From the IMG/VR virus record IMGVR_UViG_3300036828_000767, positions 1 to 53,515 of that record: a stretch of 53,515 nucleotides of DNA; one strand, written 5' to 3'. The stretch is from a virus (taxonomy: Duplodnaviria; Heunggongvirae; Uroviricota; Caudoviricetes). Position numbers and translations under genes: made by a program. This document shows positions 22,943 to 47,254 of the stretch, one piece after another (positions within the stretch are counted from its first letter, which is position 1; each line of letters begins with the position of its first letter). Below the pieces are notes generated by a model. That model saw only the letters and a list, made by a program, of their open reading frames with translations, did no database searches and was not told the origin of the DNA.

Positions 22943-23647
22943 TTAGTCCCTCCTGGGTATGGCGCGGAGCCAGCCATGCTGATGCCACATGTCACTACCT
23001 TCAGGGTAATGCGGGTGGCGTACAGTTTCCACATCGTGGCCGCTGGCGGTGAGCAGGGTTTCGCATTCTTCTTTCAGCCCTGGGGCGTGGAACTCTATCA
23101 GCCACTTCGTCCCGCATGCGGCCATGAGCATCTGACCGCCGCGGAGAACCGCCGCTTCGTGGCCTTCGGTGTCGATGACCACCAGGTCCGGGTCGCCGAT
23201 GTCATCGGCGAGAGTGTCGAGGGTGGTGCACGGCACCGCGTGCAGTTTCGCCTCACCCCAGTCCGGCAGCGACCACTCCATCCCGTCGGTGCCGGGGGTG
23301 ACCCATTCCCCCTTGCTGATAGCCATGGGTACTTCAGCGAGCTGCACCGTGCCGACATGGTCGGAGACAGCGACATTCATCAGCAGCGCCCACGGGATAT
23401 GCGCTTCACGTCTTTGGTCTTCCAGGTCAGGTTCAGCCCACGCATGGAACCGCTGCCGGAGGTCACCGTAGGAACCAGGTTCGGGTTCGCAGGCGATGAT
23501 GCCCCGGTACCCGAGGGCAGCGAACTGGGCGAAGTTTTCACCTTTCCTCGCGCCGATGTCGAACGCGAGGTCACCAATAAGGTCACGCCATAGGACCGGT
23601 TCGACGGAAGGCGGGTCAGATGGCACCAGAGGAGGCAGTTCAGGCAC
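22943..23647 (-). CDS. FkbM-family SAM-dependent methyltransferase
   Basis: AFDIGARKGE (motif I), IACEPEP, NVAVSD, VPCTTLDTL, LVVIDTEGHEAAVLRGG, LIEFH; GGAGGA before GTG at 23647. Confidence 0.9.
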   Translation of the reverse strand: MPELPPLVPSDPPSVEPVLWRDLIGDLAFDIGARKGENFAQFAALGYRGIIACEPEPGSYGDLRQRFHAWAEPDLEDQRREAHIPWALLMNVAVSDHVGTVQLAEVPMAISKGEWVTPGTDGMEWSLPDWGEAKLHAVPCTTLDTLADDIGDPDLVVIDTEGHEAAVLRGGQMLMAACGTKWLIEFHAPGLKEECETLLTASGHDVETVRHPHYPEGSDMWHQHGWLRAIPRRD

Positions 23648-24452
23648 TGATTCCTCCACGGACGGTGTCGAGCTGGTATTTGCCTGGTTCGCGGTGCGGG
23701 CGGAACGATTGCGCCTGGGAGAACGCAAACGACGTTTCGCTTGACGCCCAGCCTTCGAGGCGGCCGATGTTCTGCGACCTGGAAGCATCCGGCACCACGC
23801 ACAGCTTGTCATGGTTCGGCAGGATACGGGTCGCTATGTTCCAGTCCCAGCCAGAATCGAACCCCTTGGTGCCGGAAGTGCAATCCCAGTCCCAGTCCTT
23901 GGCGAACATGGGCCACCGGTCCCACCACGTACCCCAGCACCAGGCATTGAAGTACGGCGTAAGCCGCACCTGCCACTGGTCCGCGTCACCGTCATCAGCA
24001 GGCTCGTGTTTGTCCCACCCCTGCCCGCCAGGCGAATGAGCGCATACCGCAGCGACCTGCTCGTTGCTGGCGAACTCCGTTGCGGCCCAGGCGAAGTACT
24101 CCAGGATGTCGTCGGACACCACCACGTCTTCTTCGCCGAAAATCACAAACGCCGGTTCGGGGGACCAGTTCACCATGTCAGCGAACAAGGCGTCGCCCAT
24201 GTCGCCGATAGCCCTGTGCATGCCCATGTTCGGCACGGGGTCAGGGTGAACAATCACACCAGGGCGGTGCATCAGTTCGCTCTGCTGGAGGACGGCTGTC
24301 ATTTCCCGTTCCCGGTCGCTACGGCCCATCGCGACGTAGAACTCTTGCACTTCGCCGATACCCCGGGCTTGTTCCCACGATTTGACAGTTTCCCGCCAGT
24401 AGTAGGGACGCTTACAAGCGGTCGTGGCGACAGCCATGTCGGCTGGGGTCAC
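23640..24452 (-). CDS. GT-A glycosyltransferase, GT13 (GnT-I)-like
   Basis: TACKRPYY, VIFGEEDVVVSDDILEYF, AVCAHS, FNAWCWGTWWDRW, GWDWNI, VVPDASRSQNIG; start uncertain (24437-24530). Confidence 0.7.
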   Translation of the reverse strand: MTPADMAVATTACKRPYYWRETVKSWEQARGIGEVQEFYVAMGRSDREREMTAVLQQSELMHRPGVIVHPDPVPNMGMHRAIGDMGDALFADMVNWSPEPAFVIFGEEDVVVSDDILEYFAWAATEFASNEQVAAVCAHSPGGQGWDKHEPADDGDADQWQVRLTPYFNAWCWGTWWDRWPMFAKDWDWDCTSGTKGFDSGWDWNIATRILPNHDKLCVVPDASRSQNIGRLEGWASSETSFAFSQAQSFRPHREPGKYQLDTVRGGISA

Positions 24453-24513
24453 CAGGATGCACCCTTCGGCACGTAGGCCCGCACCGTGCCGCAGCGGACC
24501 GGCAGGGGGTATC

Positions 24514-24693
24514 TCACGCGCCTTCCTCATGCGCCGAATGGAACAGCCCGGTGCCGCACGCCACGCAAGCCGCCATGTTCATCGGGTCCGGCGTGAACGG
24601 GTGCTTCACCTCCTGCGCGTCCGCGGTGGTGCCGTCGATGCCGTACGCCTGACGCACCGGCTCACCGCGGTTCTCGAACTGCTGGTCAGTCAC
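24514..24693 (-). CDS. Small Zn-finger-like protein (59 aa)
   Basis: MTDQQFENRGEP...KHPF...CVACGTGLFHSAHEEGA; GTGA overlap with upstream gene; not in ORF track. Confidence 0.6.
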   Translation of the reverse strand: MTDQQFENRGEPVRQAYGIDGTTADAQEVKHPFTPDPMNMAACVACGTGLFHSAHEEGA

Positions 24694-24902
24694 GACTGCC
24701 TCGCAATTGCGGCATTACCCCAGAACATGACTTCCTCCAGATGAGTGATGGCCAGGGACTTCTCCCGGCCTTCGGGAAGCATCGCGTTCAGGTTGTAGGC
24801 GAGCACCTTGCAGCCCTGCCTCACATCGTGATGCTCGTTGACCCGGAACTGGTCCGGCGGGGGATGATGGCCGAACCTGGCATCAAGATCGTCAGGGCTC
24901 AC
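24690..24902 (-). CDS. Tad1/Acb2-like hairpin protein (candidate nucleotide-signal sponge)
   Basis: RFGHHPP...PEGREKSLAITHLEEVMFWGNAAIAR resembles the Tad1 C-terminal helix (SRENACALTHVEEALMW, recalled). Confidence 0.7.
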   Translation of the reverse strand: MSPDDLDARFGHHPPPDQFRVNEHHDVRQGCKVLAYNLNAMLPEGREKSLAITHLEEVMFWGNAAIARQS

Positions 24903-25066
24903 TTGTGACCCTTCTTCTTCTCGTCCTTGGTGCCGTCAAGCTGGAACGGCACCGCGTACCCGCCAGCGGAATCGACATCCAGTGACATGACACGCATCTG
25001 CCCGTCACCGGTACCAGCGTCCTGCACCTCGACGATCTGCGGCTGCTCAGTCTTCTTGTCGGGCAT
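24899..25066 (-). CDS. 55-aa protein carrying a copy of the major-capsid N-arm motif
   Basis: MPDKKTEQPQIVEVQDAGTGDGQMRVMSLDVDSAGGYAVPFQLDGTKDEKKKGHK; AGGAGG RBS; stop overlaps next GTG; not in ORF track. Confidence 0.75.
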   Translation of the reverse strand: MPDKKTEQPQIVEVQDAGTGDGQMRVMSLDVDSAGGYAVPFQLDGTKDEKKKGHK

Positions 25067-25075
25067 TGCTTCCTC

Positions 25076-25216
25076 CTATCGCGCGGGCCACCCGGCCTCG
25101 AACCCGGGGATACCCAACCGGAACAACCACGGCAGCGACCGGACACGCGGGTCATCCGCTGCCACCATCCCGAACGAGTTGCCGTTGCTGTACGCGCTGT
25201 TGCCATTAAGCAACAT
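25076..25216 (-). CDS. Small hypothetical protein (46 aa)
   Basis: AAGGAAGG RBS; MLLNGNSAYSNGNSFGMVAADDPRVRSLPWLF, weakly like VAAGHPILR...LF of 22667-22942. Confidence 0.5.
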   Translation of the reverse strand: MLLNGNSAYSNGNSFGMVAADDPRVRSLPWLFRLGIPGFEAGWPAR

Positions 25217-25288
25217 GACTACCTTCCTTGAACGTAGTGACCTGCCGTTATGTCGAGCGGCTAACATTTCGGCCATGGACAAGCCTTT

Positions 25289-26053
25289 TCATACACTACC
25301 AGGCCGTGGTCTGAACCAGTTTGGCGGACAACGCCGCTCCCGGACGTAGCGCGGCCACGTCCCGTCCACATCCACGGCCACCATCTGTACATCATGATGC
25401 TCACCGTGGTAGTACCCGTGCCCCCCCGCGAGGATGCGCCGTTCCAGGTCCGGCAACTCCCGGTGACATGACACTGTCAGCTTCTCGTTCTGCGCCTGCG
25501 GACCACCCAACCAGGACAAATGCCACCCACCGTCCGCAAGCAGCCGGTACGCAGGCCGCCCATCACGAACCGCAGACAGCTTCTGCCCCTTGATGTACTT
25601 CGCCAGGCCGATCACCGAACCAGGCATCGGCGCCGGGTACAGCCAGTCCACCGCACTATGACAGGTCCGCATCAGCAGCCCCGCCGGCGGCCCGCCGTAC
25701 GTCATCAGGTGCTGCGCCGGGATTTCGTCCGCGTCGGCGATCAGCACCAGGTCGTCGTCGGCGGCGAGCTTGTCAATGGTGGCGCACATGGCGTCCCGCT
25801 GGGCATGTTCACGCACCCACGGGTCCTCTGCGTCGGGCAGCTCCGGCACCACCACGTGGAATATCTTGTCCCACCACCGGTTGAACCGGCCTTCGTTCGC
25901 CGCGTAGAAAAGCGGCTTGTCCCGGCCGTGGAAATCCTGCAACGACTCGACAAGGACATGGTTCACTTCCACGCCGTATGCCTCGAACTCCTCGAACCGG
26001 CACTGGGCCATATCCAGCTCGTTGCGGAACATGAACGTGTCCCAGATCATCAT
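25289..26053 (-). CDS. GT17-family (GnT-III-like) glycosyltransferase
   Basis: DTFMFRNELDM..RF, HVLVES, KPLFY, EHAQRD, DDLVLIADADEIP, GGWHLSWLGG. Confidence 0.85.
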   Translation of the reverse strand: MMIWDTFMFRNELDMAQCRFEEFEAYGVEVNHVLVESLQDFHGRDKPLFYAANEGRFNRWWDKIFHVVVPELPDAEDPWVREHAQRDAMCATIDKLAADDDLVLIADADEIPAQHLMTYGGPPAGLLMRTCHSAVDWLYPAPMPGSVIGLAKYIKGQKLSAVRDGRPAYRLLADGGWHLSWLGGPQAQNEKLTVSCHRELPDLERRILAGGHGYYHGEHHDVQMVAVDVDGTWPRYVRERRCPPNWFRPRPGSV

Positions 26054-26766
26054 GAGATGTGCAGCCCCTCTTTAAACGCCGCCCATGTTTGCGCCGTGTA
26101 AGGCTCACCGCCGAGTTTCTCAATATCAGCGTTCAGCCCGTCCGCGCAATACGTGTCAAACGCGATCCTGTCTTTCCATGCCAGCCCCACGGACCTGGCG
26201 TACGTGTCGTCGTACTCGGCACCACCGCCGCCGGTGAAGTGCAGGTGCGGTATCTCCACGTCATGCAGGTATGTGATGCCGCATGCCTTCCCCCAGGCCA
26301 TCCACACCGGGTCCAGCCACATGTGCCTGATCGACGGCACAGCCAGGTAACCGAGCGTGGTGACAGTGTCCGCGCTGGTGAACAAGTGGCAGCACAGCGA
26401 CCCGGGCTCGCGCGGGTACTTGTCGTTGCCGAACGCGAACCGGGTCTCCTCCAGGGCATCTATCAGGTGAACATCCCACCCGTTTGTCACCGGCACGTTA
26501 TCGTCGCCGATATGGCCAAGGAACTTGTACCCCTCCGCGGCGGCGTCCTCAGCGAGCCGGTTGATCCACGGGCCTACGTTGGTGAGCGAATCACTGACTG
26601 TGTATTCAACCCCGTCCAGCCGGGGATAGCTGGCCTCATCATCAGCGTCCAGGCCAACGATGAGCCTGGTGAAGCCCTGGCACGTGCCCTGCATCGCGTC
26701 ATGCAGGCGCTGAATGTTCCGCGGGCGCCCACGTGACGGGACGATCACCGCCAGGTCTTTACGCAT
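26050..26766 (-). CDS. GT2-like glycosyltransferase
   Basis: LAVIVPSRGRP, VGLDADD, GHIGDDNVPVTNGWD, HMWLD, EIPHLH. Confidence 0.8.
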   Translation of the reverse strand: MRKDLAVIVPSRGRPRNIQRLHDAMQGTCQGFTRLIVGLDADDEASYPRLDGVEYTVSDSLTNVGPWINRLAEDAAAEGYKFLGHIGDDNVPVTNGWDVHLIDALEETRFAFGNDKYPREPGSLCCHLFTSADTVTTLGYLAVPSIRHMWLDPVWMAWGKACGITYLHDVEIPHLHFTGGGGAEYDDTYARSVGLAWKDRIAFDTYCADGLNADIEKLGGEPYTAQTWAAFKEGLHIS

Positions 26767-27691
26767 CCCTGATCACCTGATCCCAGTCTTCCACTTCGGG
26801 GAACGTGCCCCGCATCACAACATGAGCGCCGTTGGCGAAGCTTTTCACCTGCATCGAGTCGCTGGACGGATGCACCTGGCTCATACCCATCAAGCCTGCT
26901 ATTTCCAGGGCCTGCCTGTACTCCCGGTCTTTATTACCGCCGATCACGACGAACTCCACCTCGCCTGGTTCATCAGCAAGAAGCACCAGGCGGGACAGGT
27001 CCGCGGCCAGGGTCGGCTCAGCTCCGGTGACCACCGACACCAGCCGCGGGTTCGCAGGGACACCTTCCAGCAGCGCAGCGAGCTTCGCCAGGTCTTTCGC
27101 CCGTTCCCGTTCCATCTCCACCGCGTGGAAAGTAGCCACATTGGCAAGCTGATCCCGTGCCAGGGCTGTGGCGTCGCGGACCTTCCGGTGGCTTACCGTC
27201 ACCGGGATGTGCCTGGTCCGGCGGAGCTGCTCACCCAGGGCAATGATCCACATGTCGATGGAGTGGTCAAGGCTGAGCCGCCCCAGGCATTCGAACCAGG
27301 CCGCCGGGATCACCGGGAAACAATTCATCCCAAGCGCCTCGGGCACATAAGACCACAGCACCGAGAACGGCAGCCCGCGGATGTAAGCGTCCCAGCCGTG
27401 TGTCCGCATGACCGCGTCGTCGTTCCAGATGAAAAGCCAGTCACCCGTTGCGAACTCGGCCAGGTCGTTGTAATACCGGTGCAGTCCGCCGTACCCGTAA
27501 CGCTCAGGCGACACGTGGACGCGGATGCTCGGCGTGCCCGGGGGGTAGGGAATGTGGTCGTCGGGGTCAACGGCGATGCAGATTTCCACGTCGTCGGGCC
27601 GGGTGGCGTTGTTAAGCAGGGATTCGACACTGTGCCGCATCATCGTGTCCCTGCTGCGGGTGGGCAGCAGAACCGAAATCTTCTCGGTCAC
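26759..27691 (-). CDS. GT2-like glycosyltransferase
   Basis: ISVLLPTRSR, IAVDPDD, GDWLFIWNDDAVMRTHGWD, SIDMWI. Confidence 0.8.
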   Translation of the reverse strand: MTEKISVLLPTRSRDTMMRHSVESLLNNATRPDDVEICIAVDPDDHIPYPPGTPSIRVHVSPERYGYGGLHRYYNDLAEFATGDWLFIWNDDAVMRTHGWDAYIRGLPFSVLWSYVPEALGMNCFPVIPAAWFECLGRLSLDHSIDMWIIALGEQLRRTRHIPVTVSHRKVRDATALARDQLANVATFHAVEMERERAKDLAKLAALLEGVPANPRLVSVVTGAEPTLAADLSRLVLLADEPGEVEFVVIGGNKDREYRQALEIAGLMGMSQVHPSSDSMQVKSFANGAHVVMRGTFPEVEDWDQVIRDA

Positions 27692-28083
27692 GGCGCCAGA
27701 AGCGGCACATCAAGCCGCTCGGTGTCTGTTTCGTAGTCCTCCCCGGTGCGCGGCCCCCTGGTGAACACCAGCACCGTGGTGTCTTCCAGAGCCCGCCAGG
27801 CATGCGCGATACCAGCGGGCTCGCAGAGCATCGTGCCGGCGCCGAATTCCACGGGGACGCCGTCAACGGCGACGTGCTTACCAGCGACGAGCATCCGGCC
27901 GGACAGGATGTACGTCCACTGGGTTGTGCGTTTGTGAATGTGGTTGCCGCGTACCGCGCCCGCACGGGTGAAGATGTGCGTCACGCCGTCGATGATGGTG
28001 CTGCCGAACATGTTCAGCAGCGGCTGCAACGGCAAGTCCTGGATGATGCCACGGCGGTCTTCGAACCGGTCAGCCACGTGCAA
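27688..28083 (-). CDS. Cupin (RmlC/FdtA-like sugar isomerase/epimerase)
   Basis: FEDRRGIIQD, AVRGNHIHKRTTQWTYILSG, GIAHAWRALED. Confidence 0.8.
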   Translation of the reverse strand: MHVADRFEDRRGIIQDLPLQPLLNMFGSTIIDGVTHIFTRAGAVRGNHIHKRTTQWTYILSGRMLVAGKHVAVDGVPVEFGAGTMLCEPAGIAHAWRALEDTTVLVFTRGPRTGEDYETDTERLDVPLLAP

Positions 28084-29200
28084 CCTCCGCGATCTTCGGT
28101 TCGGGCAGCGGGATGATGAACTTCCCCTGGTAGCCCTTGCCGGTCAGGGACTTCATGATGTCGCCGGCGATATGCCAGGAAAAGATTAGCGCGTACGGAG
28201 GCTGGTCTGCGATGAGCTTCGCCTCATCCACAACGGGAATCTGAGTTCCCGGCATCGTCTTGCCGATTTTCTCGCTGCCGGGAACCTCGCACACGCAGGA
28301 CACATAACCAGAAATCCCGGCGAAGTGGATCAGCGGCGTCGCCCTTGTGGTCGCCCCGATGCCGTAGATGCCGCCGGAAAGCCCGCCGAGCAGCCTTCGC
28401 AGTTCCAGGCCGGCCTGGTTCGCCCGGTTGGTCAGTCCGCCGAACTGTGGTGCCTTCGCGGCGAACACCCGCATCGACCCGCCGTGGGTGTCGATATGCT
28501 CCACGGCCTTTACTTGAAGCCCGCCGTTTTCCAGCAGCCGGGTGAGCGTCCCAGGCGTGTAGTACCGCAAGTGCTCGTGGTAAACCGTGTCGATCTGCAA
28601 GCCGTGCTCCACGGCGCTGAAGTCGTGGCACTCGGTGACGAACACGCCCGTGGGGGACAGCAAATCAGCGACGCCGCAGACAAAATCCACCGGTTCCGGG
28701 ACATGCGCCAGAACATTCGTCGCGGTCACCACCTCCGCCTGGCCGTAATCCTGAACGATCCGCCACGCCAGGTACGAGGTGAAAAAGTCCTGGTAGACGT
28801 TCATGCCTTTGGACTGGCATTTCAGTGCCTGCCTGGTGGGCTCCACCGCCACCTTGGTGCACGCCTGCGGGAACGCTTCCAGCAGCGTCCCGTCGTTCGC
28901 GCCGATATCCACCACCAGGTCGTTTTCCCGCAGCAGCCACGACACCTTGTTCGCCAAGCCCTCAAAATGCCACCGCAGCGCCTTAGTGTTCCCCGAAGCG
29001 TACGGGTGATCCGGCGGGAACAGTTTCTCCTGCGGCACCGCGTAAGACAGTTGCACCAGGAAACAGTTCGTGCACCGCCGCAGCTTCAACGGGAACACTT
29101 CACTGCTGCCGTAAGCCTCAGCGACAGGCTGATCACCCATGTCAAGCAGGACCACGAAGTTATGCCCGCCGCACAGCGCGCAGGACCGAATCTCAGCCAT
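28070..29200 (-). CDS. NDP-hexose C-methyltransferase (Zn-binding N-terminus, SAM domain)
   Basis: CALCG...LDMGDQPVA...LRRCTNCFLVQL; VVDIGANDGTLL; TNVLAHV; DTVYHEHLRYY; THGGSMR; KIGKTMPGTQIPV; KFIIPLP. Confidence 0.9.
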   Translation of the reverse strand: MAEIRSCALCGGHNFVVLLDMGDQPVAEAYGSSEVFPLKLRRCTNCFLVQLSYAVPQEKLFPPDHPYASGNTKALRWHFEGLANKVSWLLRENDLVVDIGANDGTLLEAFPQACTKVAVEPTRQALKCQSKGMNVYQDFFTSYLAWRIVQDYGQAEVVTATNVLAHVPEPVDFVCGVADLLSPTGVFVTECHDFSAVEHGLQIDTVYHEHLRYYTPGTLTRLLENGGLQVKAVEHIDTHGGSMRVFAAKAPQFGGLTNRANQAGLELRRLLGGLSGGIYGIGATTRATPLIHFAGISGYVSCVCEVPGSEKIGKTMPGTQIPVVDEAKLIADQPPYALIFSWHIAGDIMKSLTGKGYQGKFIIPLPEPKIAEVARG

Positions 29201-30155
29201 TGTTCTGGTACCACGTAACAGTCGCCGACAGGCCGTCCTTGAACGGCGTCCTGACAAGGTTCCCGATGCCGGCGAGCTGGTCCATCTTCGTGGTGTCGGG
29301 CAACCGCTTCGGCGGGGAGCCCTTAGGCAGCGTCCCGGGGATCACCTTGACCTGCTTCCCGTAGCAGGCCGCTACCTCGTGGGCGACCTGCTCGATGCTC
29401 CGCTCCACCATGGTGCCGACGTGGTACACGCCGGTCTGCCCCTTCTCCAGCAGCAACGCCAACTGCTCCACACAATCGCTGATGTAGCAGAAAGACCTGG
29501 TTTCCAGGCCGGTGCCCTGGATGGGGAACGGCAGAATCGCCGCGCTGGGCTGCTCCTTAACAAGCTGGTTCATCCGCAGGCAGAACTCCGGGATGACATG
29601 CTCACGGCCCATGTCGGGACCGTAAATGTTATGCGGGCGGGCGATCACGGCCCGGTCCAGCACCCCGGTGCGCTGCCACGCCAGCGTCACCAGCTCGGAG
29701 GCGATCTTTCCGCCGCCGTAGGAGTACCGGGGGTTCAGCACATCCGGGACTGTCAGCGGCACATCCTCACCGGTAGGTACTTCCGGTGCCACCTGGTACG
29801 CCTCGCTGCTGGACACCAAGAGGAAATCACCGCAGCCCCACTGTTCGCACGCCGACATCAGGTTCAGGACGCCCCGCAGCGCCACGTCCAGTACCTGCCT
29901 GGGCTCCGCGTAGAACGTCTGCGTGCCTTGCAGGTACGCCAGGTGAATAACAGCGTCCTGACCCTGCACAGCCCGGTGGACCTTCATCTCGTCGCGGATG
30001 TCGCCAGGGATCAGGTTCACCGGGGTGTTCCGCAGCCGTTCAGCCTTCCCCCTGGACAGGTCATCCAGCACGGTGACCTCATGGCCGAGGCCGTACAGGT
30101 GCTTGCAAAGACTGCTGCCGATGAACCCGGCGCCGCCGGTGACTAGAACCCTCAT
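29193..30155 (-). CDS. NAD-dependent nucleotide-sugar epimerase/dehydratase (extended SDR)
   Basis: VLVTGGAGFIGS, VSSSEAY, RYSYGGGK (YxxxK), RPHNIYGP, RSFCYISD. Confidence 0.92.
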   Translation of the reverse strand: MRVLVTGGAGFIGSSLCKHLYGLGHEVTVLDDLSRGKAERLRNTPVNLIPGDIRDEMKVHRAVQGQDAVIHLAYLQGTQTFYAEPRQVLDVALRGVLNLMSACEQWGCGDFLLVSSSEAYQVAPEVPTGEDVPLTVPDVLNPRYSYGGGKIASELVTLAWQRTGVLDRAVIARPHNIYGPDMGREHVIPEFCLRMNQLVKEQPSAAILPFPIQGTGLETRSFCYISDCVEQLALLLEKGQTGVYHVGTMVERSIEQVAHEVAACYGKQVKVIPGTLPKGSPPKRLPDTTKMDQLAGIGNLVRTPFKDGLSATVTWYQNNG

Positions 30156-30781
30156 TACGCCTCCACGTAGCGGAAGTGCGGACTGTCTATTTCCACCCGG
30201 CCGGGCTTGGGCATGTTCGGCAGCATCCCTGCCTGGACGCTGTCACTGCTCGAATGCCGGTAGTAGTACAGAACCCTATCCAGGTAAACCTCCGCCTTCA
30301 CGTGCGGCCTGACACCGCCCCGCCAGGTGAAATCCTCCGGCCAACCCTGCGAAAAGTCACCTATTCGCGCCAGATCGGCACGTACCGGCTGCACGTGGGT
30401 CAGGTCCCGGTACAACACGCCAGCGGCCCAATCGTCACGCGGGGTGTTGACGATACTGTTCAGCACCCTCACCGGCAGGCCGCCGTCCCGGGTGTAGATC
30501 GTCTCGAATCCCACCACGTCAGGACCAGCTTCGAGGGCAGCCAAAATGACCGGCACATAGTCGTCGGCTACAGCGTCGTCGTCATCTATGAAACTGACGT
30601 ACTCGCCGCGGGCCGCATCCAGCAGCACCTGCCGGTACACGCCCACCGGCTTCTCGCCGTTGTTGTGCAGTGCGACTATCTCCACGTCATCGCCGGTTAT
30701 CTGCGACAGAACCATCCCAACCAACCCAAGGAACCGGGACTGCCGGTAACCAATCGTCGGGATCAGGATGCTCCACTTCAC
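30155..30781 (-). CDS. GT2 glycosyltransferase
   Basis: WSILIPT, LDAARGEYVSFIDDDD; GTGA overlap with upstream gene. Confidence 0.88.
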   Translation of the reverse strand: MKWSILIPTIGYRQSRFLGLVGMVLSQITGDDVEIVALHNNGEKPVGVYRQVLLDAARGEYVSFIDDDDAVADDYVPVILAALEAGPDVVGFETIYTRDGGLPVRVLNSIVNTPRDDWAAGVLYRDLTHVQPVRADLARIGDFSQGWPEDFTWRGGVRPHVKAEVYLDRVLYYYRHSSSDSVQAGMLPNMPKPGRVEIDSPHFRYVEA

Positions 30782-31467
30782 CGCAGTGCCTTCACTGTCG
30801 CGACATCCGCCGCCATCCGGTGAGCCTGCCATTCCAGGTAGGCCCGGTAGTCCCGGTGGTCGGTGTGGAAGCCTCCGGCGTCGCCGTAGGTGGCATCCAT
30901 GGAGGCTTTGCCGGTGGTGTGGTGGAGGTGCTCAACTATCACGTCAGGGTTATACACCAGGCACCCGGCGGCGTGGCCCAGGTCTGACCACACGTTGTCC
31001 ACGCAGTAATGACCCAGGGCGGGCAGGCACATCCAGCCCAGCGCACGAACTATCTCCACACTGATCACCGGCGCTGTCGCCAGGCGTTTACCCATCGCCA
31101 GGTCATCCCCGTAAGCGATACCAGGCCCGCCGGTTTTCGACACCGACATCATCAGCTTCTGGTCCCACCCCACCGTGCGAGGCAGGTGATCGTCGCCGAA
31201 CGACGCAAAATGGGTGAACCCTTTATCCAGCGCGGCCAAGGCCAAGACGTTCGTCCACCCGGCCAGAGACTTCCGTGGCCCCACCGTGTACGTCACGTCC
31301 GCCCCACCAGCGGCATCCATGTACACCGGCAGGTACACGTCGTCATCGTCGAGGCCAACCGCCACCGTGGTGTCCTTCGCCCTGGTGACACGCAAAGCGT
31401 CGATCATCCTTGCCAGCCCCGCCGGCCTGCCTCTGGACGGGACAATCACCAGCAGCCGGTACAGCAT
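30778..31467 (-). CDS. GT2-like glycosyltransferase (paralog of 26050-26766)
   Basis: LLVIVPSRGRP, VGLDDDD, SFGDDHLPRTVGWD, HYCVDNVW, VEHLH. Confidence 0.8.
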   Translation of the reverse strand: MLYRLLVIVPSRGRPAGLARMIDALRVTRAKDTTVAVGLDDDDVYLPVYMDAAGGADVTYTVGPRKSLAGWTNVLALAALDKGFTHFASFGDDHLPRTVGWDQKLMMSVSKTGGPGIAYGDDLAMGKRLATAPVISVEIVRALGWMCLPALGHYCVDNVWSDLGHAAGCLVYNPDVIVEHLHHTTGKASMDATYGDAGGFHTDHRDYRAYLEWQAHRMAADVATVKALR

Positions 31468-31471
31468 CTGG

Positions 31472-31639
31472 TCAGTCTTCTTCGCCGGAGGTGACACGCT
31501 CTGCCTCCGGGCACGGGGAAACGTGGTGAATGGACCGGATTTGACTACGCCAGAGTTTGACAATGGGCGCTCCGCAGCCGGTACAGACAAGCAAACCATC
31601 GGCGTTCCTGACCACCCTGACACCATCGGCAGGTGTCAC
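31472..31639 (-). CDS. Small Zn-finger-like protein (55 aa)
   Basis: MTPADGVRVVRNADGLLVCTGCGAPIVKLWRSQIRSIHHVSPCPE...; fills the gap between two GT genes. Confidence 0.5.
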   Translation of the reverse strand: MTPADGVRVVRNADGLLVCTGCGAPIVKLWRSQIRSIHHVSPCPEAERVTSGEED

Positions 31640-31647
31640 CGGCCCGC

Positions 31648-32847
31648 TCACAGCTTCGCCTCTATGGCGGCAAGAGCCGGAATCCAGTACTTCTCCAGCA
31701 CCGTATCCACGTCATACTCCTGAGCGTGCGCCCGGGAAGCGGCACACTTCGCCCGATACGGCCCGTCTCGTTTGTACGCCTTCTCGAACGCTTTGACAAG
31801 CTCAGCAATGAGCGGCTTGTCCCACCAGGAGTCATGACCAGGCCGCCAGTACGGTTCCGACTTCACCTCGTACGCGACCGGGCCGACCACCTCGTGCATG
31901 GCGCTGCCCCACCCGCCGGCGCCGTGCTTCCCCGGCCCGTACTGGTCCTCCCCAGTGCCCCTGGTGGACACCACCGGAACACCGCATGACAGGGCCTGCA
32001 ACGCGGGCAAGCCAAACCCTTCGGCGAGAGACGCACCAGCGTAAAGGTCAGCGATGCCGTAGTTGGACCGGAGCGTTTCCGCACGGATCATCCCGGCGGT
32101 CAGCAGGTACTGGTCGGTCCAGGCGATCCCGTCGAGGCAGCCCATCCGCGCTGCGGTGTACGGCAAGTCCAGCCCGCTGTTTGTCGTTTGCAACGTGTGG
32201 CACATCAGCAGGGCGTCAGGGTGCTTGACACGGAACCGGGAGAACGCCGCGAACAGTTCCGCGTAGCCTTTCCGGTCATGGGACAGGTTCGCCGCGTCGG
32301 TGAAGATGATGAACCGGTCGTCGAGACCGAGGGCTTCCCTGGCGGCTTTCTTATCCGCCGGCGGCACCCACAGCGTCTTGGTGTCGATGCCGTGCGGCAC
32401 ATAGGTGGAGCTGTGACCAACTTCGGCGAGCTGCTTCTGCGCGAAATGTGTTAGTGCCAGCAGGTGCGTCTTCACGCCGGCGTTTTTGGCGTTTTCCAGT
32501 TCGTTGCTGTCACGGGTGGACAGCGGCGAACAGTCCACCGGAATCCAGAACGCCACGTGACGGCCGCGGAGTGTTTCCTTCGGCAAGGCCCACTGATCCA
32601 TGAGCGCTATCACAAGGTCGGCTTTGAAATGTTCGGCGTGCTTCCCGATGATGTCGCCGCCGTAGTTATGCTGCCCGCCAGGGTAGACGGGGATGCCTTC
32701 CCATCTGGTCATCCCTCCTAGATGACCGTAAAACGACGAGATCGCCACCTCGTGACCGAGTTCAACCAGTTTCCTAGTCCATACGCCTGTCTGTACCCCG
32801 TATCCGGTGCCTGCCCAGGCGGCATTACTATGCCACAAGATACGCAT
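31648..32847 (-). CDS. GT4 (GT-B) glycosyltransferase
   Basis: MRILWHS, TGYGVQT, VPHGIDT, DRKGY, AEGFGLPALQALSCGVPVV. Confidence 0.92.
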   Translation of the reverse strand: MRILWHSNAAWAGTGYGVQTGVWTRKLVELGHEVAISSFYGHLGGMTRWEGIPVYPGGQHNYGGDIIGKHAEHFKADLVIALMDQWALPKETLRGRHVAFWIPVDCSPLSTRDSNELENAKNAGVKTHLLALTHFAQKQLAEVGHSSTYVPHGIDTKTLWVPPADKKAAREALGLDDRFIIFTDAANLSHDRKGYAELFAAFSRFRVKHPDALLMCHTLQTTNSGLDLPYTAARMGCLDGIAWTDQYLLTAGMIRAETLRSNYGIADLYAGASLAEGFGLPALQALSCGVPVVSTRGTGEDQYGPGKHGAGGWGSAMHEVVGPVAYEVKSEPYWRPGHDSWWDKPLIAELVKAFEKAYKRDGPYRAKCAASRAHAQEYDVDTVLEKYWIPALAAIEAKL

Positions 32848-33026
32848 TACGAACAATCAGGGCAGTTGCGGCCCACCCGGTCAATACGCTGGCGGCGTAT
32901 CTCGGCGACACGGATAAACACCGAAACGTTGGACCGCCAGGACTCGTTGCTGCGGCCCACGTGCCCGCAAGAGAACTGCGACAGCGGCGCGTTGACCGCA
33001 ACACTGCGACTGCTACCTTCGGTCAT
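32847..33026 (-). CDS. Small hypothetical protein (59 aa)
   Basis: MTEGSS...FSCGH...RNCPDCS; TAATG overlap with GT4 start. Confidence 0.45.
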   Translation of the reverse strand: MTEGSSRSVAVNAPLSQFSCGHVGRSNESWRSNVSVFIRVAEIRRQRIDRVGRNCPDCS

Positions 33027-34463: not shown

Positions 34464-37400
34464 CTACAGGGTGCTGAGCAGGCGGAATGCGTTGGGCACG
34501 AGCACCCGGCTGTTGTTAAACCAAATCGCGAGAATCCCTCGTTGGCCGACCGGGAACCGGTTGGTCGAGCCGAACAGGTGCGGGATCAGCTCGATGCCCA
34601 TGCCGATCCGGTCCACGATCAGGAACTGGCTGAAGTCGCCCTGGAGCAGGACGAGGGAGCCAGACGAAATCGCCGTGGTCATCGTGGACAGTTCGTACGC
34701 CGGGTAGCCGTTGAACGTCGCCGGAGTACCAGCGGAAGGCCGCACCCACGAGTCGAACGCGGCCGAGGCGAGAGCCTGGAAGAGCTGACGGAACCGGTTG
34801 AAGGTCGTCTTCGACGCCAGGTAGGCGCTCTGCTGACGGAACCGGGGAGCCATCTGGTTTTCCAGGTTGTACAGGTCACCAATCGCCAGGGTCGCCGTAC
34901 CCGCCGTGTTCACCAGCGAAGCGGGGCTGGAGTCATGCAGCGTCTGGATGACACCGTTGGCGTTCGGGGCGGTGCCGTTGCCGAGGGCGAACGAAGTTGC
35001 TTCCTCAACGTCCTTGGCATCCATCAGCAGGTTCGTCATCTGGGACCGCAGCGCGCCCCAGGAGACGTCCAGCTCGATGTTGAACGGCACGAAACCCTGC
35101 ACCCGCGTGGTGCGGACGTTCGGCTGCACCAGCAGCGGGTCACCGGTCGCGGCTTCAGTTCCTTCAGCGACACGGTTGACAACCACACCAGCGGACGTCA
35201 CGCCGTCCCATTCCTTGCCGGTGATCTGCTCCACCCGGGAAATCTGGCGAAGCGGGTTGATGGCCCCATTTGAGGACAAAATCACCGTTGGGTCGAGCTG
35301 GAACGGTACGGCGAAACCGCCTGCGGAGTCCACACCGAGCTGAAGGGCTCGCTGCTCCTCAGTGTTCAGGCCATTCACGCTCAGCGACCCAAGCATCTTG
35401 CCGAACGCCCGGTCGTAAAGCGGCGAACCGGTGACCAGGACACGCCGGGCCAGGGAGCCGCCCTCGTCATCCACCCGGTCAAGCAGGTTCGCGACCGTCT
35501 CCTGGCAGTCCTCGCGGGACTTCGGACCGGAATACCGGACCGCGTCCAGGGCACGCATCGCGTGCTCCCGGTACAGGGTGGGCACCTCGTCGAAGTTGTG
35601 CGCCTTGTGCCGGATCGCCGTCAGGTCGAAAATCTGCTCCGGCTTCATCGGGTTGTAGAACATCGGCCCGGTGCCGAGACGGTCCTTGACATAGGCGGGC
35701 GCGTTCCTGACCGTGGTGCCGTAACCACCCTGGCCCCCGCCGGGAGTGAACCCAACACCGGGGAAACCGATGCCAGCGTTGTCGATGCCCTCCATGGCAC
35801 CCTCGTCGCCGCTCTCAACGATGGTCCGCAGGTACTGGGCGCGAGCCGTGGCGTCCTTAATGGCCCGCTGATGCTCGATCAGTTCCTGCTGAAGGGAAGT
35901 CCACTCGGTTCGGGTGTCGGCCGGAAGTTCGGCACCCATGTTTTCGGTGTCGATCTCTTGCAGCCGGTGCTGGACTTCCATGAGCCGCGCCTGCCGCTGG
36001 TCGATGGACATAAGTCCTTCCATCGTCTCGCTCTCCTTGATAGTGCTCGGGGGTGCCGGGTGCGGCTGCGGCCCTGGCTTAACGGCGGCCCCAGTGCTTG
36101 CGTCTGCGTTACGCGGGACGGCGGCGGCTGGCTTCCTGCCGGAACTGCTAGAACTCTTTGTATCACCCTTTGCCGCCTGAATGGCGCGTTCATGCGCCTC
36201 CAGGTGCGCCCTTGCTGCCGTCGCGTTCATCAAACCCTGAGCGCCGGCAAGGCGGCCGAGTGCATTACTGACACCATGCGCGTTCGGCGGGTCGCCTGGC
36301 TTGTAGTGGTGCGGGAGACCCCACGTGGCTTGCAACTTCGGGTCGCCCTTACGGCGGCCCGCGCAAACCGCGGCGTAAAACTTGGCCGGGTCATTCGACG
36401 CCGAACCCGCAGCCCACACCTTCCCCGCATCCCACGCGGAAGTGTCCACACTGCCATGGCTGTCATCGGCAGGTTCGGCGGCATCAGGTGCGGCACGCCC
36501 TTCCTTGTCCTTCATCGGCTTCCCCGGTACCGGCTTCTTCTGCTTCCCATCGGCCGTCCAATAATCATGGTCGGTGTCGGTGGAAGCCTTCGAGTCGTCG
36601 TCGCCGTCCTTATCGGGGTCAAACTTGCCAGCCTTCGACGCGGCGACACCAGTCGGCGTGCCCATATCGTCGGCGTCCGGCTCAGTTTCCTTCTTCTTCT
36701 TGCCCTTACCAGCGCGGCCTGAAGTACCGGGGTCGTGGTCGTGGTCGTGCAGCGCGTCGCCCTCGTGGTCGTGTTCATGGCCGTGCATTCCGTCGCCGTT
36801 GTCGTCGGGGCCGTCATAAGCGTTGTGGTTGTGGGAATGCGAACCGGTATGGGTGCCATGCGTGGCCACCGTAGTGTCACGCGCCGGTACTGGGCTTGCC
36901 ATGTCATCGGCGGCCGGTGCCGCCGTGGCCCGCTCAGCTTCCACGTCGTCGTCCCTGGCTGAATTGGAAGTCATTCCTGCGGCTCCTGTCACCACCGCCG
37001 GGTACGCCTTATTGTCCGCCTGCGCGGACGCACCAGCGTCTTCGATATGCGCCCGCAGGTGCGCCTTCGCCTTCTGCTTGCTGTCGGTGGGGAACCCTTC
37101 GATGGAATCAGCCTTCAGAAGCGCGTTCCGGGAGGCGATAAGGTTCGCCGCGCCGGGGGTGCCATCGTCGTTGACGTGGTGGTGCGGCAGGTAACCATGC
37201 TCGGGCATGTAGTTGCCGCCGTTTCCCGCACCAGCGGCCTGATCGGCAAGGGCGTACACCGACTGCATGTGGTCCCAGGACGTGGGGAACTTCAACTTGC
37301 CGATTTCGGCCTTGGGGTCGTAGTCGGTCGTGGCCACGTCGGTGTGGTGAACCGGCACACCGGTCCGGCTCTGCCCGTTCAAATTGACGATCTCCATTGC

Positions 37401-44875: not shown

Positions 44876-45082
44876 GTGGACATCTACGTTGCCGTAGCGG
44901 ACTATCCCTGCCAGGACCGGTACACACCCAGTGCCATCTTCGGAGCATTCAGCACCGAAGAAAGGGCTCGGGCGGCAGTGGAAGAAGACGCCGGACCGCT
45001 GGAATGGAAAGAAGATAGGGCCACCGACGCTGCCGGCGTTAACTTTACGGTGATGCTGGTCAGCCTGGATGAGGCTATTTGA
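44876..45082 (+). CDS. Hypothetical protein
   Basis: IYVAVAD...IFGAFSTEERARAAV, a common small phage protein pattern. Confidence 0.6.
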   Translation: MDIYVAVADYPCQDRYTPSAIFGAFSTEERARAAVEEDAGPLEWKEDRATDAAGVNFTVMLVSLDEAI

Positions 45083-46172
45083 CCGGCAGGTACTCGAACG
45101 ACCTGGTACCGAGTGAACGAGGGTCTAGGGCGCGGGCGGTCATACCGCCACGTTTTGGGCCAACACGTTTCCCGGTGCCGAGCTGACGCGATCTGACCGT
45201 GGAACGCCACCTTGGTGACGCGACAAAGTAATGCACCAGGCCGGGATGTGCGGTGACGAACCGGTACCGGTAGCCCCGGTCGGCGAGGTACTGGCCCTGC
45301 CACTCGCACAGGTGCTTGGCGATGCCCAGCCCCTGCCAGTCGGGCAGCACCACCACCCGGTGCGCCATCTGGATGTCCCGCACCTTCGGGTGGGGGAAAT
45401 GCCGGTAAGAGGAGAACGCGACAGGCCGGCCGTCGCAGTACACGCCGAAACATTTAGCCGTGGTATGGAGGGAGGCGCTCAGATAGTGATACCTAGCAAA
45501 CAGGGGCCAGATGGCGCGACTGCATTGGTGAATCTGGAGACTGATCGGCGGATGGGGTCTTTTAGACCTCCAGGCGAACTCGCCAAGCGGCATCTCAACC
45601 ACCCAATCGGGCTGAAGCCATTCGAGGACATCTTCGTGACAAGTTACCGCGATGAGCCTACGGTCTGTTTTACGGATCGCCTTTTGCAAGGCATGGGAAG
45701 CCACCCGCGCCACGTGCCTATCAACGACAGAACTGTATTCATCTATTACCGCAACGCCACCGGCAGGCGTTTCTGCGATGGCCCTTGCAACATCGGCCCG
45801 GAAGGCTTCACCGGTACTGAGCGTGGAGTAGGGCCGGACCCAGGCAGGCACGCTGCCCAGCCCCACGGCGGTCAGGAGCTTGACGGTCTCGCCTACGCCC
45901 ACCGGGAACCCGTCTATCAGCGCCTTATCCTCCGGCCAGTTGTACCGCTGAGTACATTGTGGCCATGCTTCTTCTGCAAGGAGACTCTTACCTGCCCCAG
46001 ATGGACCGGTGACAAGGCCGATATTCCACGGTTTTTCGTCGAGAGGCATCCTTACGTCAAGGTCAACTCGCAGTTTTTGGTCGAGTGGAATGTCCATGAG
46101 GCCCGCGACCTGCAACGCCCGAGGCGTCCGGGTTATTGTGTAGTCCTTACTAATTCTTATATGTGTTTCCAT
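45075..46172 (-). CDS. ABC-type ATPase fused to GNAT acetyltransferase
   Basis: GPSGAGKS, LSTGEAFR, AVIDEY, AVTCH; then YHYL...HRVVVLPDWQGLGIA (GNAT motif A). Confidence 0.88.
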   Translation of the reverse strand: METHIRISKDYTITRTPRALQVAGLMDIPLDQKLRVDLDVRMPLDEKPWNIGLVTGPSGAGKSLLAEEAWPQCTQRYNWPEDKALIDGFPVGVGETVKLLTAVGLGSVPAWVRPYSTLSTGEAFRADVARAIAETPAGGVAVIDEYSSVVDRHVARVASHALQKAIRKTDRRLIAVTCHEDVLEWLQPDWVVEMPLGEFAWRSKRPHPPISLQIHQCSRAIWPLFARYHYLSASLHTTAKCFGVYCDGRPVAFSSYRHFPHPKVRDIQMAHRVVVLPDWQGLGIAKHLCEWQGQYLADRGYRYRFVTAHPGLVHYFVASPRWRSTVRSRQLGTGKRVGPKRGGMTARALDPRSLGTRSFEYLPVK

Positions 46173-46690
46173 AGCCTTCCTTTGATGATGCTGCATACGG
46201 CACTACGGCTTATCCCAAATTCGGCAGCAAGGTTCTTCTGCTGTTCGCCTTCCTGGTGGCGCAGTCTGATTTGCCGTACGTCCTCAGCGGTCAGTTTGGC
46301 GTTGCCATGATTCTCACCCCTAGGCGAACGCTCTCCGTTACCGTCACGGATATCGCGATCCCAAGCATTTTCGGCCGCAGTGCCCCACCGCAGGTTTGGC
46401 AAAGAATTGTCGAATGGCCCAGCAGGGCCGTGCAGGGCCATAGCCCCGGGAGGTGGCGGGCCAGCGAAGGCTTCAAGAACCAGTCGTGCGACCGAGTAAA
46501 ACCTTTCTTCCTGAACGCCATCTTCGAACCGGCAGAGCCTCACCCGGATGTACCGCTCCTTGACACCACCTAGAAGCCGTCCGCCGCGCATGCCGTAATG
46601 GTGACGCCGGGGAAGACTTCGGACCCTGCCCAGATCGGAGACCTCGTAAAGATGCACCCAGCCTGGCACTGGCCGCCAACATTCCGTCAT
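46157..46690 (-). CDS. NUMOD4-HNH homing endonuclease
   Basis: WRPVPGWVHLYEVSDLGRVRS; VARLVLEAFAGP...ALHGPAGPFDNSLPNLRWGTAAEN; C-terminal HTH. Confidence 0.9.
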   Translation of the reverse strand: MTECWRPVPGWVHLYEVSDLGRVRSLPRRHHYGMRGGRLLGGVKERYIRVRLCRFEDGVQEERFYSVARLVLEAFAGPPPPGAMALHGPAGPFDNSLPNLRWGTAAENAWDRDIRDGNGERSPRGENHGNAKLTAEDVRQIRLRHQEGEQQKNLAAEFGISRSAVCSIIKGRLWKHI

Positions 46691-46714
46691 AGAGTTAACG
46701 TACCACGGGGCACG

Positions 46715-47254
46715 TCAAGTCATAAGTGCACGAACGGACAGCCCCTGGGTGGACAGCGTTTCGAGGAGGCGAAGCTGCTCATCCTCCGAGCCGCATTCAA
46801 CAATTACACCCCAGCGCATTCCGGCTTCCTCACCGTCACCGAGTTCGTCGGGGAGGGGCGGGTCGATCATCCGATCGACTTCCACTGCCGTGAACCCAGT
46901 GCCCTCGTAGTCGCCGTCGAGGTAGGAGAGGAGTTCAACGAGGGCATCCTTGTCGTCAGTCGCCAGATCGCTGATCCGGTTGTCGGCGATGTTGATACGA
47001 GCGGCCTCGTCGTCGCTGCATTTGAGGAGGGCACAGTCGCCTTCGGTGAAACCTTCAGCTTCCATGGCGTCGGCGGTGCCGTTGCCAGCAAGTATCACCA
47101 TCGAGTCGTCGTCCAGTACGCGGACAACAAGTGGACGGTACTGCCCGAGCCGTTTCACCGAAGCCCTGATCTGGTCGTCCGCATGGATGCGGGCGTTGCC
47201 GGGGAACCGGGCGAGGTCTGACAGATGAAGTCGCTGCTCTCCAAGGCGTTCCAT
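46715..47254 (-). CDS. ParB/Srx N-terminal nuclease-like domain protein
   Basis: LARFPGNARIH...IRASVKRLGQYRPLVV...ILAGNGTADA...INIADNR; TAGACT-N6-ATG. Confidence 0.88.
   Translation of the reverse strand: MERLGEQRLHLSDLARFPGNARIHADDQIRASVKRLGQYRPLVVRVLDDDSMVILAGNGTADAMEAEGFTEGDCALLKCSDDEAARINIADNRISDLATDDKDALVELLSYLDGDYEGTGFTAVEVDRMIDPPLPDELGDGEEAGMRWGVIVECGSEDEQLRLLETLSTQGLSVRALMT

Follow-up and report, generated by a model that had tools for sequence, protein, structure and literature searches.

The phage proteins Acb2 and Tad1 are nucleotide sponges that share a helical hairpin. In Acb2, as represented by homolog 43 (PDB 9PTQ; 10.1101/2025.08.24.671296) and by the proteins of PaMx33 and JBD67 (PMC10312549), this hairpin carries an Arg/Thr pair that binds cyclic trinucleotides. 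The corresponding pair of CbTad1 (R90/T97; PDB 7UAV/8SMD; 10.1101/2023.11.15.567273) likewise binds cyclic trinucleotides and also helps to build the Tad1 hexamer, while Tad1 additionally possesses an N-terminal β-sheet domain and a gcADPR pocket with the residues N92, R109 and R113. When 84 sponge homologs were assayed, 65 proved active. The gene removed in the acb2 deletion of JBD67 lies two places behind the capsid gene and ahead of the head-tail adaptor gene. Furthermore, a report on N4-like phages (10.64898/2026.06.04.730250) describes anti-signalling hotspots, in which three adjacent small genes, each shown to inhibit defence, are proposed to act against CBASS and Thoeris.

Here, we describe a locus that resembles these systems in outline. 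It is a trio of tiny genes (ORF1, ORF2 and ORF3), the second of which occupies a late-operon slot between capsid and head-tail adaptor like acb2 of JBD67. In contrast to the N4-like hotspots, only one of the three genes comes from an anti-defence family, as judged by its sequence. We consider it somewhat more probable than the sum of its alternatives that the trio consists of co-inherited accessory genes, namely an Acb2-type sponge (ORF2), a protease-processed head peptide (ORF1) and a zinc module (ORF3), with no necessary common pathway. The greatest interest attaches to ORF1: in a clade of HK97-type actinophages, the capsid cut site and N-arm recur as an independent small gene product that ends in a basic tail and is under selection.

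The window, by which we mean the whole stretch of DNA analyzed, comprises the first 53.5 kb of a 117.5-kb virus record with an estimated completeness of 93%. Its minus strand reads as a late operon with genes for terminase, portal, a protease-capsid fusion, sugar pathways, head-tail and tail proteins. The host is probably actinobacterial, since the G+C content is 63.6% and the cultured matches are mostly phages of Rhodococcus, Gordonia and Mycobacterium. Between its protease and HK97 domains, the protease-capsid fusion has ~690 additional residues with His/Asp-rich tracts. The capsid and head-tail genes are separated by ~10 kb of glycosyltransferase, epimerase, methyltransferase and cupin genes (22943-32856), and the sugar-pathway genes of this region are present in the related lineage L090 and absent from L059 and L065.

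Three tiny ORFs with GTGA overlaps, as reported in the initial annotation, are indeed present on the minus strand at the coordinates given in Table 1. That annotation also placed them between two glycosyltransferases, which holds for the upstream GT17 neighbor, whereas Pfam, PHROG and NCBIfam offer no assignment for the downstream ORF. A probable fourth small ORF of 46 codons (25076-25216, minus strand; AAGGAAGG upstream) occupies the gap that separates GT17 from ORF1. In relatives, the same gap harbors a different 73-aa gene (L059) or a gene for a 263-aa GH16-like protein (L071), or is empty (L065), and we therefore regard it as a variable slot. On the other side of the trio (24450-24513), the window is devoid of the Methyltransf_24 gene (~185 aa) that immediately follows ORF3 or acb2 in relatives. 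A search for sigma-70 promoters in the surroundings of the trio found none.

Table 1. Features of the trio and its surroundings, in positions of the window
Feature	Position	Strand	Remarks
ORF1, 55 aa, ATG start	24899..25066	-	copy of capsid maturation site and mature N-arm, Lys-rich tail
AGGAGG ribosome-binding site of ORF1	25072..25077	-	5 nt upstream of ATG
Capsid-like segment of ORF1, residues 23-46	24929..25000	-	predicted cut after Arg25
ORF2, 70 aa, GTG start	24690..24902	-	Acb2-type sponge (PF24729, phrog_1454); Arg46 and Thr53 match cyclic-trinucleotide site
ORF3, 59 aa, GTG start	24514..24693	-	unnamed module; probable zinc site formed by His31, Cys43, Cys46 and His55
Prohead protease-HK97 capsid fusion, 1190 aa	34464..38036	-	presumed processing enzyme and template of ORF1
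Capsid source segment, residues 894-917 of major capsid protein	35286..35357	-	match to ORF1
GT17 glycosyltransferase	25289..26053	-	upstream neighbor of trio; family assignment (context)
Conserved ORF	23640..24530	-	downstream neighbor of trio; glycosyltransferase-like by appearance only (context)

The two 4-bp overlaps, one joining ORF1 to ORF2 and the other ORF2 to ORF3, suggest translational coupling, but not a special unit. Adjacent genes of this operon usually overlap by 1, 4 or 8 bases, and at least three other junctions also have 4-bp overlaps, so that we dismissed the GTGA overlaps as a sign of special coupling. All three genes are under purifying selection: in every pair of the six lineages in which ORF1 adjoins acb2, dN/dS is below 1, with values of 0.12-0.52 for ORF1, 0.13-0.47 for ORF2 and 0.09-0.55 for ORF3, which are noisy given such short genes, compared to 0.15-0.38 for the GT17 neighbor. 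When the window is compared with L059 and L065, dS is 1.2-1.4 for acb2, but only 0.2-0.4 for ORF1 and 0.5 for ORF3. This far higher divergence of acb2 hints at an exchange of alleles within a fixed slot; the six slot alleles are also scattered in a tree of 66 Acb2 proteins, but with its 73 columns this tree is unresolved, so that allele replacement is no more than suggested.

The initial annotation had called the product of the middle gene Tad1/Acb2-like on the basis of a helix motif, which is present in ORF2, and a search with the hairpin profile settles its family: ORF2 matches PF24729 with 69.9 bits (cut-off 27; E 2e-19) over profile positions 1-58 of 58, and it also matches phrog_1454. Among proteins of solved structure, Acb2 homolog 43 comes nearest to it (profile E 2e-9); the match to Tad1 is weaker (E 0.005) and spans only the C-terminal part of the latter. 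The structural model (pLDDT 90) is a helical hairpin of two long antiparallel helices (residues 18-41 and 46-68); as it has no strands within its 70 residues, the Tad1 β-sheet domain is missing. Fold searches with this model were unspecific, the hairpin being too short, and add no weight. By its sequence, ORF2 is thus a member of the Acb2/Tad1-hairpin family, of the Acb2 type rather than Tad1.

Arg46 and Thr53 of ORF2 are invariant in 67 homologs and align with R90/T97 of CbTad1 and the corresponding pair of JBD67 Acb2. The gcADPR pocket of Tad1, by contrast, is not kept, with N92, R109 and R113 replaced by Lys48, Ala65 and Gln69 and an invariant Arg68 one position off; together with the missing β-sheet domain, the loss of the gcADPR arginine led us to reject the name Tad1. 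For the cyclic-dinucleotide site, Arg28 aligns with a lysine of homolog 43, whereas the Tyr11/Lys26 site of JBD67 Acb2 cannot be mapped reliably, because the N-terminal halves do not align; a profile comparison between the ORF2 homologs and JBD67 Acb2 was likewise not significant. Since the Arg/Thr pair is kept, R109 is Ala and the dinucleotide site is unmappable, cyclic trinucleotides are our best guess for the ligand. Compared to the known Acb2 sponges, ORF2 is shorter and has a different N-terminus, with Ala in place of Lys55 of homolog 43. It is otherwise a routine new member of a known and common sponge family, with 316 near homologs and homologs at the ~50% level in 383 cultured phage records. 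Genes of cluster E mycobacteriophages annotated as CBASS antagonists (PMC11953737) may be among these homologs, judging by their similar gene number.

ORF3 had been described as a zinc finger, and at the level of its ligands this term is reasonable: in 21 homologs His31, Cys43 and Cys46 are invariant and His55 is near-invariant (≥90%), which makes a zinc-type ligand set, although no named zinc-finger family and no Pfam family matched. The model of this small module has a pLDDT of 93, yet in fold searches nothing exceeded Z 2.1 among solved folds or TM 0.42 in the Atlas; weak C2H2-like matches lie at TM ~0.4, and Atlas feature searches returned nothing usable. Elsewhere, the module is either encoded alone, within other head operons, or embedded in large proteins, namely a portal-NUDIX fusion, a 2H-phosphoesterase protein and three proteins of 1,600-1,700 aa (L082 4853-9406, L081 9179-10855, L084 5888-10630, L087 5693-10633 and L089 3766-8955).

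The capsid likeness of ORF1, suspected from the outset, is real. Residues 23-46 share 16 of 24 positions (67% identity; E 1e-8) with residues 894-917 of the capsid protein of this phage. The Smith-Waterman score is 86, whereas 2000 shuffles reached no more than 59, and at the DNA level 35 of 43 bases agree. [quoted passage not shown] HK97 itself is cut at K103/S104 (PMC10275583), and Edman sequencing of the LittleE capsid placed the mature N-terminus 8 residues ahead of a GG motif (PMC3706429). By analogy in sequence, we infer a maturation cut after Arg895 in the capsid and after Arg25 in ORF1, and the new N-terminus would then lie 9 residues ahead of the GG motif.

ORF1 is not a singular case. 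A profile search of 1.8 billion representatives yielded 22 small proteins of 51-117 aa, which together with the six close lineages make up a family of ~28 stand-alone microproteins; as the profile included the tail, tail-less copies may be missed. Their common layout consists of an unrelated, often acidic front end, followed by ~20 residues of capsid N-arm; the likeness to the capsid stops where a capsid Pro is replaced by Gly, and the basic tail begins. Arg occupies the predicted P1 position in 27 of the 28 and a positively charged tail is likewise found in 27. All 40 cultured-phage matches listed (of 51) are capsid genes. Two DNA-pattern matches (L102 and L104) were rejected as chance similarities, and a further stand-alone copy of the capsid arm, with Met instead of the P1 Arg, lies at the end of a longer ORF (L101 ~1029-1490). 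We also rejected the idea that the ORF1 relatives are truncated capsid fragments, because each of them is an intact short gene that has a tail of its own and is located inside a long contig.

Being short, covered by no Pfam, PHROG or NCBIfam family and missing from most relatives, ORF1 could in principle be a non-functional remnant of a capsid-gene duplication. The selection signal, which persists over six lineages with dS up to ~1.6, largely refutes this, and the good ribosome-binding site and 28 members with the same motif boundaries and tail speak in the same direction; we therefore regard a remnant as hardly credible.

In six related lineages (the window, L059, L065, L071, L073 and L090), ORF1 lies directly ahead of acb2, and in five of these ORF3 follows next after acb2, while in L073 it is located upstream of GT17. 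Where the window can be compared with L059 and L065, however, the capsid is 79-82% and the portal ~90% identical, and glycosyltransferases are shared. As the neighbors are just as conserved and syntenic as the trio, its order in close relatives is probably one inherited arrangement. Beyond this clade, the genes part. Neither ORF1 nor ORF3 was found in any of 57 viral Acb2 loci, and the ORF1/capsid motif occurs in none of 50 Acb2-bearing records, although the same search found it in 50 of 50 capsid records; most of the Acb2-bearing records are not of this capsid type, and the control sets are fragmentary. Acb2 is likewise missing from the examined surroundings, up to 10 kb per side, of six distant ORF1 relatives, eleven other ORF3 loci contain neither ORF1 nor acb2, and none of the cultured phages with an ORF2 homolog has ORF3. 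Conversely, among the 50 records with this capsid motif, a stand-alone copy or Acb2 is found only in a clade member; 49 are without a stand-alone copy, and six near-complete ones have neither this copy nor Acb2. Many of the records are fragments, and these absences are consequently soft. Still, the originally proposed coupled cassette, in which ORF1 would act as a decoy for immune sensing and ORF2 as a sponge for the resulting signal, is not supported, because outside one clade, whose whole operon is syntenic, each gene occurs apart from the others.

We rather envisage three accessory genes, each mobile by itself, that came together a single time in a variable late-operon slot within one clade of large actinobacterial phages and were co-inherited thereafter. 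ORF2 would form an Acb2-type oligomer that soaks up alarm nucleotides of CBASS or Thoeris late in infection, likeliest including cyclic trinucleotides. ORF3 would be a small zinc-binding module, which is also found inside head-associated polyproteins, and the three products need not share one pathway. ORF1 is most likely a protease-processed head peptide. As a substrate of the phage's own prohead protease, it would be cut after Arg25, freeing a peptide of ~30 residues, the first ~20 of which match the mature capsid N-arm and the remainder of which forms the basic tail. This peptide may act in or on the head, for instance by filling a vacant N-arm site, e.g. at the portal vertex, or with its basic tail tethered towards the DNA. 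A complex prediction for ORF1 residues 20-55 with three capsid subunits devoid of their N-arms scored 0.00, which is no evidence either way.

Such a role would have parallels in small proteins like PVP of P74-26 (PMC12407722) and gp4 of Patience and Adjutor (PMC11965321), whose arms complete capsid β-sheets or fill gaps. In particular, the portal vertices have no penton and are completed by arms of small proteins, and a Lys of PVP contacts DNA (PMC12407722). PVP and gp4 are, however, not copies of the capsid N-arm and are not reported to be cut by a protease.

The genomic setting of ORF1 leaves room for other readings. That 49 of 50 capsid-motif records, including six near-complete ones, have no stand-alone copy implies that ORF1 is not an essential part of the head, and its distant relatives lie mostly in non-structural regions, among small accessory genes; both observations count against a head peptide. 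Two of these family members are flanked by the same pair of ParB-like and ABC-ATPase/GNAT-like genes (L094 9013-11546; L095 8650-11551) that occurs in the window with an HNH-like gene in between (45075-47254), all names being given by appearance. Mobile, accessory and often outside the structural operon, ORF1 might instead interfere with capsids, either by poisoning or redirecting the heads of competitor phages of the same family or by tuning the size of its own. Its sequence is as close to the consensus of the wider family as to its own capsid, and satellites are reported to redirect the capsids of their helpers through capsid or scaffold homologs (PMC8569155, PMC5644958). However, no satellite features were seen, and here ORF1 resides in the operon of its own capsid gene and would risk self-interference, which makes interference a very unlikely role.

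A second point against our preferred explanation is that ORF1 and acb2 are adjacent in all six close lineages, while other surrounding genes come and go. It is this adjacency, along with the accessory surroundings of the distant relatives and the dispensability of ORF1 across the capsid clade, that speaks for a selected counter-defence cassette, in which ORF1 would bind to a host sensor for the capsid N-arm but not activate it and ORF2 would mop up the leftover signal. We keep this scenario in consideration because ORF1 is accessory and because capsids and prohead proteases trigger defences, the former having been found to activate Thoeris and Avs systems (PMC12578639; 10.64898/2026.01.04.697583). 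Nevertheless, Ser and Tyr of ORF1 stand at positions that are Gln and Phe in its own capsid, and ORF1 varies while the capsid motif is fixed; it therefore does not track its own capsid exactly. Moreover, the only sensor structure that we compared, Avs7, reads folded A-, P- and E-loop surfaces, with the N-arm absent from that paper, and co-occurrence with Acb2 is confined to one clade. Taken together, a decoy seems unlikely to us.

Alternatively, ORF1 could act on the protease rather than on a sensor. As a competing substrate or as a product inhibitor, it would keep stray prohead-protease activity in check and thereby lower the CBASS alarm, with Acb2 absorbing the remainder. Prohead proteases can activate CBASS by cutting the cyclase (10.64898/2026.03.04.709575), ORF1 shares an operon with the protease-capsid fusion, and it keeps both the P1 Arg and the residues after the cut. 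Yet conservation extends ~20 residues beyond the cut, which exceeds the needs of a protease site, and the capsid precursor already presents the same site in hundreds of copies. As CBASS activation has been shown for T4 gp21 only and not for HK97-type proteases, and as the genomic link to Acb2 ends with this clade, we think such a damper quite unlikely.

The closest parallel to ORF1, and one that again argues for a processed head peptide, is found in phage T4. Its uncharacterized gp61.1 (54 aa) has the same layout, reproducing the maturation site and the mature N-terminus of its capsid ahead of a Lys-rich end: it matches residues 57-93 of the capsid protein gp23, which span the maturation site, with an E of 6e-9. 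The gene (L186 1967-2131) adjoins that of the primase, outside the head operon. The likeness to ORF1 is one of layout alone, with no similarity in sequence (BLASTP E 1.9), and it connects two different capsid lineages with different protease specificities (Glu in T4, Arg as predicted here). The start of gp61.1 resembles a capsid-targeting tag, which ORF1 does not have. We found neither the ORF1 family nor gp61.1 described as capsid-arm copies in the limited open-access literature, so that ORF1 apparently represents an undescribed microprotein family in parallel to gp61.1.

If unrelated capsid lineages evolved copies of their capsid site and N-arm independently, those described here might serve anti-immunity, through sensor block or protease damping, and be paired with Acb2 as a two-layer late module, which we hold to be doubtful. 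As decoys or protease dampers, these peptides would represent a new route of evasion from capsid- or protease-triggered immunity; as overlooked head components, they would constitute an additional element of capsid assembly, one that might escape notice under icosahedral averaging. The comparison with T4 points more to head assembly than to a decoy, given the layout of gp61.1 and its start resembling a targeting tag. Likewise, the recurrence of one design in two distant capsid lineages, each time built on the head protease's own site, fits best with a processed, head-associated peptide, and T4 makes the role of such peptides testable now.
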